64,000 nucleotides of DNA from Tricharina praecox (taxonomy: Eukaryota): the NCBI RefSeq assembly GCF_024521635.1, contig NW_026250423.1, forward strand, positions 248,001-312,000, given 5' to 3'. Made by a program: the position numbers and the translations under genes. Positions within the stretch are counted from its first letter, which is position 1. Each line of letters begins with the position of its first letter. Of the stretch, positions 44,581 to 48,677 are shown piece by piece. Under the pieces are notes generated by a model. It made no database searches, was not told where the DNA came from, and saw only the letters and a program-made list of their open reading frames with translations.

Positions 44581-47285
44581 ATGGATCCAACAGCGTTTCA
44601 AGTCGTATATGTTGATCGGCGTGCGAGTTGCGACCGAGTTGTCTTTCGGGATGCGACGGGGCAGAATGGGATCGGTCAGGAGCATGGCACAGTAGAAGAA
44701 AATGCACAAAGCCTCCTTTTGGCATTCTCTTCTGGTATGTTTTTTTTCTCCGTTGATTTCTACTACTTCCTCATGACAGGCCGCGGTGTGCAGTGAATAA
44801 TTCCAAATACTGACGCACAATATGCTTACAGTGTCTATCTGCAACTCTGCTCAGAGTTGTCTGACAACTCTGTCGGATAACGATGGCAACAATCCGATCC
44901 TACTTCTTGTCGAAGTCCCAATAGAGCCCCAACCGGACGAAGATAACAACATTCACGACGGACGGCACGATTCCGGAATAGCATCAGGACCCGCTGACAT
45001 GATGCTGGGCTTGCCGCTGTTGAAGTATGTCTGCTCGGAGATCGAGAGCATGCGGATGCCGAACTCAATAATACCCGTCGCGCTTCTGACACATGACGAT
45101 GATGGTCTGGTAGCACCGCGGGCGGAGCTCGAAGACGATTCCAGAACTGCTCGGGAATTGAAATGCATTGATAATGGGGCATGGGACGCTTTTGAGAATC
45201 CGCTTTCCAAGGACAGTGTTAGGACGATGCACATGCACTGCTACCGGGCCCGGAAAACTATCCAGAAGACCAGAAAGCGGTCGTGGGTTGGCATAGATGA
45301 ACCGAAGGCCGACAATTACTCGTATCTGCGAGAAAAGATGTGAGCACGACTTTTATACCGGGGAGTGTTACTCGAATTCTAACGAGATGATCACACAGGG
45401 TTCGAGAGCTCATGACCGAAATATGCTGGCCTAAGAAGCTGAAGGTTTCGTCCAACGGAGGGTAGGCTTTTTCCCTCGTCCGTGCATTTCGATTTCCGTC
45501 ACTGATTATGCGCAGCCGGGTTAGGATACCTATCACACGAGCCAACGATGTGGAGAAAGCGGTTGGGCGATGGGATTTCTCTGCCCATGATTTCTCGGAT
45601 GAAGAACTCGTCCACTGCGCTCAAACCATGTTCCAGCACGCTTTCACGATGCCGGAGGTGTCGGAATTTGTCATTCCGCCAGGTAACACCTTTTTGCGCG
45701 TCGCAATCGTCCCTTTGTTTGATCACCAACTAATTCAACGATAATAGATCGTATGGTGGATTTCCTACTTGCATGCAGGGGAACCTATAACGACCAAGTA
45801 CCTTACCACAACTTTCGGCACGTTGTGGACGTGCTGCAGGCAGTGTTTTTCTTCATGCTACAGCTTGGAGCATTGCCACACTATAAGCACCACAAAATGG
45901 GCGAGCTGGATGAGGAATCGACAGCGAAATCGCTCGCCCACCTTATTACTCCGTTGGATGCGCTCACCCTGTTGGTAGTTGCTATCGGTCACGACGTCGG
46001 TCATCCCGGAGTGAATAATGCGTTCCTCGTCACTCTGAAGGCCCCGCTTGCTCAGCTGTACAACGACAGATCTGTCCTCGAATCCTTCCACTGTGCCGCG
46101 TTCTCACAGGTGTTGCGGAAGCATTGGCCGAAGGCGCTGGATCAACGCAAGATGATAATAGACATGATCTTGGCGACGGACATGGGCTTACATTTCGATT
46201 TCATGGGAAAGCTGGACAAGCTCAGGAAGAAATACGAGAAGGAAGGTGGATCCGGCGTGTGGGAGGAGAAATCGGTCAACGATCATCGGATCCTTTTGTG
46301 CGCACTTATCATCAAGTGCGCTGATATCAGCAATGTGGTAAGTCTTACGCCAATTTACTAGCTCTGCACAAAGATCACTCGGGCTAACATCTCCTAGGCT
46401 AGAAAGCACGAGTGCTCCGCGCAATGGGCTACCATCTTGATTGAAGAGTTCTCCCGGCAAGCAAACATGGAAGTTGATCTAGGGATCCCGTCGTCCCTCG
46501 TCGCTCCGCCGATAACTGGGTCCGTCGTTGCACTTGCCAAATCTCAAGTTGGATTCATGAATTTGTTCGCGATACCTCTGTTTCAAAATCTCAGCACGGT
46601 GTTGCCGGAAATGCAGTTTAGTGTCAGCGAGCTAGTATCGAATAAGGATGCATGGAGCAGAAAGAGCGAAGTTCACACTTATCAACGTCCCGAAGACAAT
46701 AAAACGAGTGGAAGTGCACAGCAGCAACAGAAGCTAGCGTCATCCTCGCTCTCGGTACCGTCTTCGCGTCCCCAATCGACCCACGAACATGAGCAGCACC
46801 ATGCGCCGAATCGCCACCATCTTCCTCCCGTTCTGGGCACGGCCTTGATGGAGGCCGACATCCCGAATTCGGACAACGAGCCATCCATCTCGGGTTCCGA
46901 AATTCGGTCCGGGGTCGCATCCCCGCGACTCAACGATACCACCGTGCAACGGCACCCCGGAAACGGTAATGCCGCCGCTGTAACCGTTGTTGTTACGCAT
47001 CCCAAGATTCAAACTAACGGATATGGGCCGGTTTCCGAGAAGAGGCCGACCTATCAGCACTCGACCGAACACTTAAGAGCTGTCTCTCCGAATGATGCAT
47101 CGTCATCTCCGGATCGGCCCAGATCATCGCCCCCAGATCTTGGGGATTGCAGCGATCAATCGTGTTCGAAGGGTTGCTGCAACACTGCCATCATCCCCAG
47201 TGGGACCATGGAGCGGAGATCATCACGATTCTTTAAGAAGGTCAAGCTCTGGAAGACGTGGCGAAAGGAACCTAGTGATGGGTGA
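44581..47285 (+). CDS. PDE2: High-affinity class I cAMP phosphodiesterase (Pde2/PdeB/PdeH), 6 exons
   Basis: Motifs WDFSAHDF, VPYHNFRHVVDVLQA, AIGHDVGHPGVNNAFLV, YNDRSVLESFH, ILATDMGLHF, IKCADISNVAR, EEFSRQ and SQVGFMNLFAIPLF. Five canonical introns. First in-frame stop is TGA 47283-47285. Confidence 0.95.
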
Positions 47286-48677
47286 CTATATGGTCGGTAT
47301 GACTATACACCGGGAGCTGTCGACAATACTACCGCTTTCAACAGTACGGACGCACCACCACCACCACCATCTGCGCTGAAGGAGAAACCGCTCGTTACGG
47401 ATCTGATATTAGCCAACCGAATGCATGATACAGTTGTTCGACCCAAGACAAGTGCGGATAATACCGCGCAGGCGACTGTTGCGGCGGTTGCGCGGTTAAG
47501 TCGGATCAAAAAGATGAAAAGTTTGCATTGCTTTTAGATGTTAATTTCAGGAGGATGAGCCGGCGGTTCTATGCCATTTTTTGCGGTTTCTACTTTTCCG
47601 TTCCTTTGCTTTCCTCCTTCTCTTTGTATGTGTGTGTCTTCGTTTTTCCTTACGGGTATCATTCGGCGGTGGGGGCTGGGGATGGTGGTGGGTGGTTTGG
47701 GGGGAAGGGGGGAGTGCGTGCGTTGTTGGTTGTGTGGGGTTCTTTCTTCATTGGGGATTCCTTGCTGCTGTGTCTGGTTCTCATTCCGCTTTCTGGGATC
47801 ACGGCGTTTGTGGGTCTGTGCGTGTTCTTTTGGCTTCTTTTTTCCTTTTCCGCGATTATTTTGTGGGTTCTTTTCTCTTCTGCCCTTTTGTCCCCTTTTT
47901 TCCGTGGGGATTCTTCACGAATAAACGACAGGAGGAGGAGGCTGTCGGACCGTGCGATGGTACATATCTTCTTATATCGGGATTGGGCTTTTCTTCTTTT
48001 TTTTCTTCTTCTTCTTCTTTGGGCTCTCTGGGAGGGGTTTTTTGTTTTCGGCTTTTCGTTTCTTTCGGGGGAGGGGGTGGGGGGGGGCGGTGGAAATCCG
48101 TGTTTGATGTGGATGTGGATGTGGATGTGAATGTGGATGTGAGGTTGAGGGGATTATTCGGGAGGTTCGTACTTCTTTTCTTCTTTTCTTTTCTTTTCTT
48201 CTTCTTTTCTTCTTTTTTCTTCTTTTCTTCTTTTCTTCTTTTTCTTTTACTTTTGCTTTCTCCGTGTGTTTGTGTGGCTTGTACAGTATATAACGATGAG
48301 AGATCCTTGTTTTTTACTTTCTACTTTCTACTTTCTGTGTACTTCTATTTTTCTTTTCTTTTATTTTATCGATCAGATGGTGGGGGAAGCATATTTTCTT
48401 CTTTTTCTTCTTTCTTTTCTTTTCTTGACGTGCATATAGAGGCGGGATGGAGGATATGAGGGATGGCGATGGGGGGCGTATGATGGTAGTGATGGTGGTG
48501 GTGGGTACGGACGGGGTGGGATTTGCGGGCGAAATTTTCACTGGAGATTTTTTTGATATCTGCACACGTTTATGAAGGGTCACTCGAGAACTCGAGAAGG
48601 ACGAATAACTGTAACTGAGCATTGCGCAGTGCGTACACCCCCATACCTATGCATACGAACCACGATGGTATGTATCC

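Follow-up and report, generated by a model that had tools for sequence, protein, structure and literature searches.

Why does the reading frame of a fungal phosphodiesterase gene stay open for 83 codons behind its stop codon? The question is raised by a window of 64,000 nucleotides (nt) of contig NW_026250423.1 (positions 248,001 to 312,000; coordinates below are those of the window) from Tricharina praecox, a Pezizomycete. Here a class I cyclic AMP (cAMP) phosphodiesterase (PDE) gene on the plus strand, with its ATG at 44581, ends in GAT GGG TGA CTA (47277-47288), and the same frame then runs on to a TAG. A prediction made from the letters of the DNA had proposed programmed readthrough at TGA-CTA producing a long PDE isoform, and this proposal is supported both by comparative tests and by mRNA that covers the extension. 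We conclude that the open frame is a real, conserved and previously unannotated C-terminal extension of a signalling enzyme, most likely made by programmed readthrough, and we put the probability that stop-codon readthrough at UGA-CUA yields a long PDE isoform at roughly three in four. In fungi, growth form, mating, fruiting and host interaction are under the control of cAMP, whose level depends on what the high-affinity phosphodiesterase sets. A second PDE form behind the annotated stop, kept across two cup-fungus families including truffles, would mean that current gene models miss an isoform.

The stop codon, its context and the frame behind it are conserved

The positions of the stop, the CTA and the TAG, the 83-codon frame and its translation all proved exact on re-reading. 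How surprising is such an open run? It had been given a chance of about 2%, a figure that holds for uniform composition; the observed base composition gives 0.017-0.035, but first-order Markov models of the local sequence give 0.02-0.09. Across the six frames of the window, 317 of 3976 stops (8%) have at least 83 open codons behind them, and with about 20 genes per window the open run alone is therefore not beyond chance. T-rich sequence had been said to set in only after the second stop, and 47538-48600 indeed has 43% T and 12% A, where the extension has 22% T and 28% A.

The evidence that carries the argument comes from relatives. The alignment used to search metagenome contigs (A2) contained nothing but the normal PDE tail, so the sample of loci is blind to the extension. 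The 232 pattern matches yielded 13 confirmed loci (L001-L013), which together with the window make 14 sequences with 9 distinct extension sequences. By blastp of the last exon, L001, L009 and L010 are nearest T. praecox (81-85%), L002-L004 are nearest Trichophaea hybrida (92%), and L005-L008 and L011-L013 are nearest Tuber/Choiromyces (71-82%). Upstream of the PDE stop the frame is open for 546 codons in L005-L007, 400 in L008 and 287-312 in the other loci; the sequence suggests that the last PDE intron is absent in the Tuber-like loci L005-L008, about 1640 nt upstream of the stop.

The window and 13 of 13 loci share an invariant TGA CTA YAT GG, in which the base after CTA is T for the window and for L001, L009 and L010 and is C for the remaining ten loci; the codon preceding the stop varies (GGG, AGG, GCA). 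In each of the 14 sequences frame 0 stays open, for 72, 79, 80, 83, 88, 89 or 90 codons, the second stop is always TAG, and the net length differences are whole codons in every case. Over the same span frames +1 and +2 hold 1-8 stops, and no antisense frame is open in all lineages. Within the Tricharina-like group, 80-120 gap columns per 250 nt accumulate beyond the TAG, compared with 3-12 in the extension. Every tail starts L-[YH]-G and ends K-x-K-S-[LF]-H-C-F, and columns I74, K76, K78, S79, H81, C82 and F83 are invariant in 10 of 10 aligned extensions. Among Pyronemataceae-like and Tuberaceae-like relatives, conservation extends to the stop and its context, to the frame and to the C-terminal motif, and two of the comparative checks proposed with the original prediction, retention of TGA-CTA and of the reading frame, came out in its favour.

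The extension evolves as protein-coding sequence

Conservation of a frame need not mean conservation of a protein, and substitution patterns speak to the difference. The extension evolves as protein-coding sequence in the PDE frame. Nei-Gojobori ratios of nonsynonymous to synonymous substitution rates (dN/dS) are 0.15-0.53 for within-group pairs, L002 and L003 differing by just two changes. The ratio of nonsynonymous to synonymous proportions (pN/pS) in frame 0 is 0.22-0.55, and the synonymous excess is significant in five of seven pairs: window-L009 (pN/pS 0.22, P 5e-6), L001-L009 (0.28, P 1e-4), L011-L013 (0.36, P 9e-4), window-L002 (0.47, P 0.0012) and L005-L013 (0.42, P 0.0036). In frames 1 and 2 none of 14 tests for synonymous excess reached P<0.05; the dN/dS below 1 looked for in the extension is present, and the excess is confined to frame 0. 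Constraint is concentrated in the C-terminal half, with pN/pS of 0.10-0.24 in four of five pairs (full range 0.10-0.56). The first half is a variable, probably disordered linker, and the second half is strongly constrained. We regard translation of the extension in the enzyme's own frame as almost certain.

Annotated or assembled proteins of seven relatives (Trichophaea, Pyronema, a Sphaerosporella-cluster transcript, Ascodesmis, Choiromyces, Tuber and Morchella) stop at the same point as the deposited T. praecox protein P0001, and none enters the extension. When 1.84 billion representative proteins were searched with the 83 residues, three hits came back. Two (E 4e-8 and 8e-6) are short open reading frames (ORFs) called in metagenomes, 61 and 55 residues long, which share the same C-terminus; one of them is a Trichophaea-like extension read from its first ATG. 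The third, the 559-residue repeat protein P0011 (E 1.5e-4, 31% identity over residues 16-52), was discounted as a low-complexity match. An extension profile (A3) run against proteins of 159-2000 residues found no fused form with a sense codon at the stop among 8000 scored candidates, which is weak evidence; against proteins of near length it found only the short ORFs P0009 and P0010, and the ESM Atlas gave no usable hit for the extension.

The mRNA runs through the stop codon and the extension

Does the extension reach the mRNA with the stop in place? RNA runs X1 and X2, from two studies and recorded as probable RNA, were used as assembled contigs, which drop rare isoforms and hide low-level editing and RNA ends; the tissue of origin is unrecorded for the RNA runs used. 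In both, five PDE introns are removed (joints 44733/44831, 45339/45399, 45460/45515, 45680/45746 and 46336/46397), and the last RNA piece is continuous over 46397-47665 in X1 and 46397-47514 in X2. Contigs of X3 span 47319-47469 and 47484-47645. No splice joint lies near the stop in the X1, X2 or X3 contigs, where other PDE joints are visible, and no letter is changed at 47285 in the contigs of the three runs, nor anywhere in the X1 and X2 pieces. These contigs therefore place the TGA in RNA and the extension on mRNA, in a dominant transcript without a stop-removing intron. An mRNA ending short of 47537 had been named in advance as counting against the long isoform; the X1 contig carries the mRNA past that position to 47665. 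The end of the X2 contig at 47514 and the contig breaks after 47665, in low-complexity sequence, are no evidence for a poly(A) site.

X3 is an environmental metatranscriptome record with short spliced contigs identical to the PDE gene over 44831-47645 at a depth of 3-4; its small share, like the zero shares of X4-X6, carries no habitat information. After the second stop, 47540-48500 is T/G-rich low-complexity DNA with simple repeats. RNA contigs fragment there, one piece opening with sequencing-adapter letters at 47773, and the stop-free runs of 222 and 304 codons within this stretch are surely due to chance.

Readthrough and its alternatives

How might ribosomes reach the extension? Most would terminate at the UGA at 47283-85 and release the 789-residue enzyme. 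Because UGA followed by CUA terminates poorly, a minority would decode the UGA with a near-cognate transfer RNA and continue for 83 codons to the UAG at 47535-37, adding a tail composed of a variable linker, then a helix, then a basic terminus ending Ser-x-His-Cys-Phe. Readthrough is judged the likeliest route since only the UGA-CUA context is invariant at the junction. Moreover, the stretch between the stop and the conserved end is open and in frame through indels, as only readthrough or editing would require.

Several observations weigh against this reading. The case for translation past the stop is drawn from evolutionary patterns. There are duplicates among the 13 loci, whose contigs belong to similarly numbered records; the pairs compared share branches, and their alignments were built on the frame-0 translation, which leans slightly to frame 0. 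Two of the seven pairs fall short of significance in frame 0 (window-L001, P 0.097; L011-L012, P 0.13), and the first half of the extension is weakly constrained (pN/pS 0.40-0.63; pooled P 0.037 from two clade-independent pairs). The base after CUA is U or C, so the motif extended by a G (UGA CUA G) is absent. The codon-usage score of the T. praecox extension, computed with stops taken out, is 0.051 and lies between non-coding and coding controls: open shuffles score -0.067 +/- 0.08 (6.75% reach 0.051), other open runs -0.036 +/- 0.18 (26% reach it) and coding pieces 0.208 +/- 0.162 (18% fall below it). Finally, every lineage (14 sequences) offers a GT..AG pair that would span the stop and keep the frame, a GT 8 nt before the stop is conserved in position, and the RNA contigs, dropping rare variants as they do, leave room for a minor spliced form.

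The last of these points bear on a first alternative, in which the stop lies inside a facultative in-frame intron and the long form comes from a minor spliced mRNA. The candidate introns run from GTGACT at 47282 to CAG at 47344 (63 nt, in T. praecox) or start at the donor 8 nt upstream of the stop, and the location of the strongest constraint, in the C-terminal half and so downstream of any such acceptor, would suit them. However, the contigs of X1, X2 and X3 show no joint close to the stop, though five real introns are visible, and neither a joint over the stop nor a conserved donor and acceptor was found, in contigs that rare isoforms may escape. The GTGACT donor is missing from the Tuber-like loci, which read GCA TGA, the -8 donors (GTGATG, GTGAAG, GTGACA) differ at position 5, and the acceptors fall at non-homologous places. 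An intron also needs no invariant TGA CTA, no open frame and no whole-codon indels, yet all three occur in 14 of 14 sequences. The 63-nt in-frame intron 47282-47344 was rejected as the main route, with no joint in RNA and its donor lost in the Tuber-like loci, and we regard splicing over the stop as very unlikely.

Could the stop instead be removed in the RNA? The original prediction had offered sexual-stage adenosine-to-inosine (A-to-I) editing of UGA to UGG at A47285 as another route to the same isoform, the long form then being made only in fruiting bodies. Stop-loss A-to-I editing does occur in fruiting bodies of filamentous ascomycetes, including in a study that covers the Pezizomycete Pyronema (PMC5381528; this and the other articles cited are drawn on here as excerpts), and, as would be the case at the PDE locus, its products are proteins with an added C-terminal stretch made from an unaltered genome, in fungi of the same class (PMC5381528, PMC11156358). 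The RNA runs are of unrecorded tissue, and their contigs would hide rare variants. UGA nevertheless fits the fungal preference poorly. According to the excerpted PMC11156358, fungal editing strongly prefers U at -1, so that the stops edited are UAG and UAA, and the base before A47285 is G. Editing sites are also rarely conserved between species, as far as PMC5381528 is excerpted, unlike the invariant stop plus CTA found here. The contigs of three runs, which may miss rare or stage-specific variants, have no A-to-G change at 47285 with respect to the DNA, and the local hairpin is not conserved. We give editing a slim chance.

That hairpin had itself been proposed as forming over the stop, with the A of the stop bulged. 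The pairing is as described, GGUG with CACC and UAUGGUC with GACUAUA around a 5-nt loop, but the 5'-side bulge has 4 nt (ACUA), more than the A of the stop. The hairpin has an energy of -14.3 kcal/mol (z = -1.76), which is equalled by 12 of 200 shuffles; it is gone in 78-nt and 141-nt contexts (z -0.20 and +1.06), and the consensus fold across loci has -0.73 kcal/mol and 3 pairs, that is, no consensus RNA structure. The hairpin is weak, absent in longer context and not conserved. One arm of the hairpin is formed by a direct repeat: the 8-base TGACTATA at 47283-47290, which begins with the stop codon, occurs again 17 nt downstream at 47300-47307, and is retained in L001 and lost in more distant loci.

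A third alternative makes the conserved C-terminal part a separate small protein with its own start, encoded on the 3' untranslated region (3' UTR) or on another transcript, in keeping with the metagenome annotation that calls two hypothetical proteins (61 and 55 residues) from an ATG. For those two called ORFs, however, the start is just the extension's first ATG. An in-frame ATG is missing from six of the 14 extensions (L005-L008, L011 and L012), which argues against a separately initiated small ORF; one other has its sole ATG 13 codons from the end, the placing of ATGs is not conserved, and the frame is tied to the PDE stop in 14 of 14. We consider a separate small protein highly improbable. 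Selenocysteine insertion is excluded in these fungi according to the excerpted PMC4207609. A chance open frame in the 3' UTR, conserved as an RNA element and not through translation, would agree with the 2-9% chance of an 83-codon open run and with a single-sequence codon score between the controls, but is strongly disfavoured by the synonymous excess specific to frame 0, by the whole-codon indels, by an amino-acid motif retained while third codon positions change and by the lack of a consensus RNA structure.

What the tail may do

If readthrough supplies the tail, what would the tail add to the enzyme? The AlphaFold2 model of the extension is of low confidence (mean predicted local distance difference test, pLDDT, 59.1; predicted template modelling score, pTM, 0.24) and is mostly coil apart from one helix that runs into the basic terminus. 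Of the motifs first picked out in the tail, the basic terminus with its Cys is the truly conserved part; RPKTS is retained in the two closest lineages only, and the polyproline run shifts in place and length across lineages. The tail had been said to lack a peroxisomal targeting signal type 1 (PTS1), and it ends H-C-F in 14 of 14 sequences, matching no PTS1 pattern in the excerpts of PMC4207609.

With its basic amphipathic end and terminal Cys, the tail may bind membranes, perhaps with S-acylation; by analogy with yeast Pde2, it may alternatively alter the stability of the enzyme. In either case we infer that the basic-plus-Cys end would change the location or lifetime of the enzyme and so tune local cAMP. 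A broader picture would have readthrough of the PDE stop as an old ascomycete regulatory device, of which yeast has one version and the Pezizomycetes another, the tail being a lipid-binding or S-acylated anchor, built of an amphipathic helix, the basic run and the terminal Cys, that brings a small part of the enzyme, in an amount controlled by translation, to the cAMP-making membrane. We think it unlikely; were it true, termination efficiency would set the shape of the cAMP signal during development or symbiosis.

The phosphodiesterase gene and its model

The PDEase_I catalytic domain PF00233 matches on two exons (E 8.4e-46 and 4.8e-12; 157 and 46.5 bits, where the cut-off is 24.8), which between them take in positions 1-237 of the 238 in the profile, as in a class I 3',5'-cyclic nucleotide phosphodiesterase of the Pde2 / PdeB type, in agreement with the earlier call of the upstream gene. 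The deposited T. praecox protein P0001 is 100% identical over the PDE tail. It lacks a 63-nt exon, 45399-45461, that is present in RNA contigs of X1, X2 and X3, flanked by introns 45340-45398 and 45462-45515; translated, this exon aligns with a segment found in Pyronema, Tuber and Morchella proteins, and with it the protein has 789 residues, not 768. The coordinates of the gene and of the features behind its stop are collected in Table 1.

Table 1. Features of the PDE gene and of its 3' end (window coordinates)
Feature	Position	Strand	Evidence
PDE coding sequence, 789 codons	44581..47282	+	PF00233; RNA joints; joined exons form one open frame
PDE exons (n=6)	44581-44734, 44832-45339, 45399-45461, 45516-45682, 45748-46337, 46398-47282	+	five GT..AG joints in X1 and X2 RNA contigs
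First stop TGA (47283-85) and CTA (47286-88), UGA-CUA leaky context	47283..47288	+	direct reading; unchanged in X1 and X2 RNA contigs
83-codon in-frame extension	47286..47534	+	frame 0 open in all 14 sequences; no Pfam family matches
Predicted helix, extension residues 56-75, running into basic terminus	47451..47510	+	AlphaFold2 on alignment A3, block pLDDT 69-75
Conserved C-terminal motif, basic run then Ser-x-His-Cys-Phe, last 11 codons	47502..47534	+	invariant columns and 14 listed termini
Second stop TAG, end of putative long isoform	47535..47537	+	TAG in window and 13 of 13 loci
3' UTR on same RNA contig as spliced coding sequence	47538..47665	+	X1 record 1 (46397-47665, no difference); X3 47484-47645

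The normal C-terminal tail of the enzyme (47037-47282) has features of its own. The blocks R-P-R-S-S-P-P, S-C-x-K-G-C-C and R-R-x-S-x-F-F are invariant in seven Pezizomycete sequences, and a basic, Trp-rich stretch comes after the last of them. By their residues, these blocks resemble a cluster of Cys together with a basic motif of the kinase-site kind.

Comparison with known systems

How does the T. praecox enzyme compare with systems already described? A search of one collection of papers, judged by title and abstract, turned up none that deals with readthrough of a phosphodiesterase in filamentous fungi or with any readthrough in Pezizomycetes. Yeast Pde2 is a class I, high-affinity phosphodiesterase. 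Readthrough of S. cerevisiae PDE2 was reportedly described by Namy et al. in 2002. The original prediction had drawn the parallel with this case, and it stands insofar as the yeast readthrough is real: there, as would happen in T. praecox, a stop is read through to give a C-terminally extended form of an enzyme of the same family. The mechanism does not carry over in its details. As excerpted, the yeast stop context is CAA-GAA (PMC4446449) and the extension has 22 residues and leads to proteasomal degradation (PMC4973966), so that readthrough changes the fate of the enzyme and cAMP; T. praecox has UGA-CUA, 83 residues and a conserved basic-Cys end, and its CTA-TAT does not fit the yeast-type CAR-NNA hexanucleotide. 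Readthrough extensions in Drosophila and mammals were found, like this one, by coding signatures beyond the stop (PMC3840789, PMC4132726 as excerpted), in a different kingdom and with a genome-wide statistic, whereas the present analysis tests pN/pS and frame by hand on 9 sequences.

The closest class is that of UGA-CU(A) readthrough. In the excerpts of PMC4207609, UGA CU(A) alone is enough for efficient readthrough in Ustilago maydis and HeLa cells, and a G after CUA raises efficiency and is not required; in human cells the readthrough consensus alone gives about 4% (PMC4973966). The class includes U. maydis Tpi1, Pgk, Rpe1 and Art1 and human LDHB, MDH1 and AQP4 (PMC4207609, PMC4973966). In T. 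praecox, UGA is directly followed by CUA at 47283-88, the stop and the in-frame extension are conserved, and a conserved motif stands at the extreme C-terminus as functional or conserved motifs do in those cases; by sequence, the PDE has the marks of the class save the optional G. There are clear differences. As excerpted, the fungal cases have short tails ending in PTS1; the PDE has U or C next and not G, is a signalling and not a metabolic enzyme, and has a tail of 72-90 residues with an H-C-F end, unlike a readthrough-derived peroxisomal isoform. If the reading proposed here is right, the phosphodiesterase would be a fungal case of UGA-CUA readthrough with a tail other than a peroxisome signal, and a natural parallel, by way of a different stop context, to the classic yeast PDE2 case.

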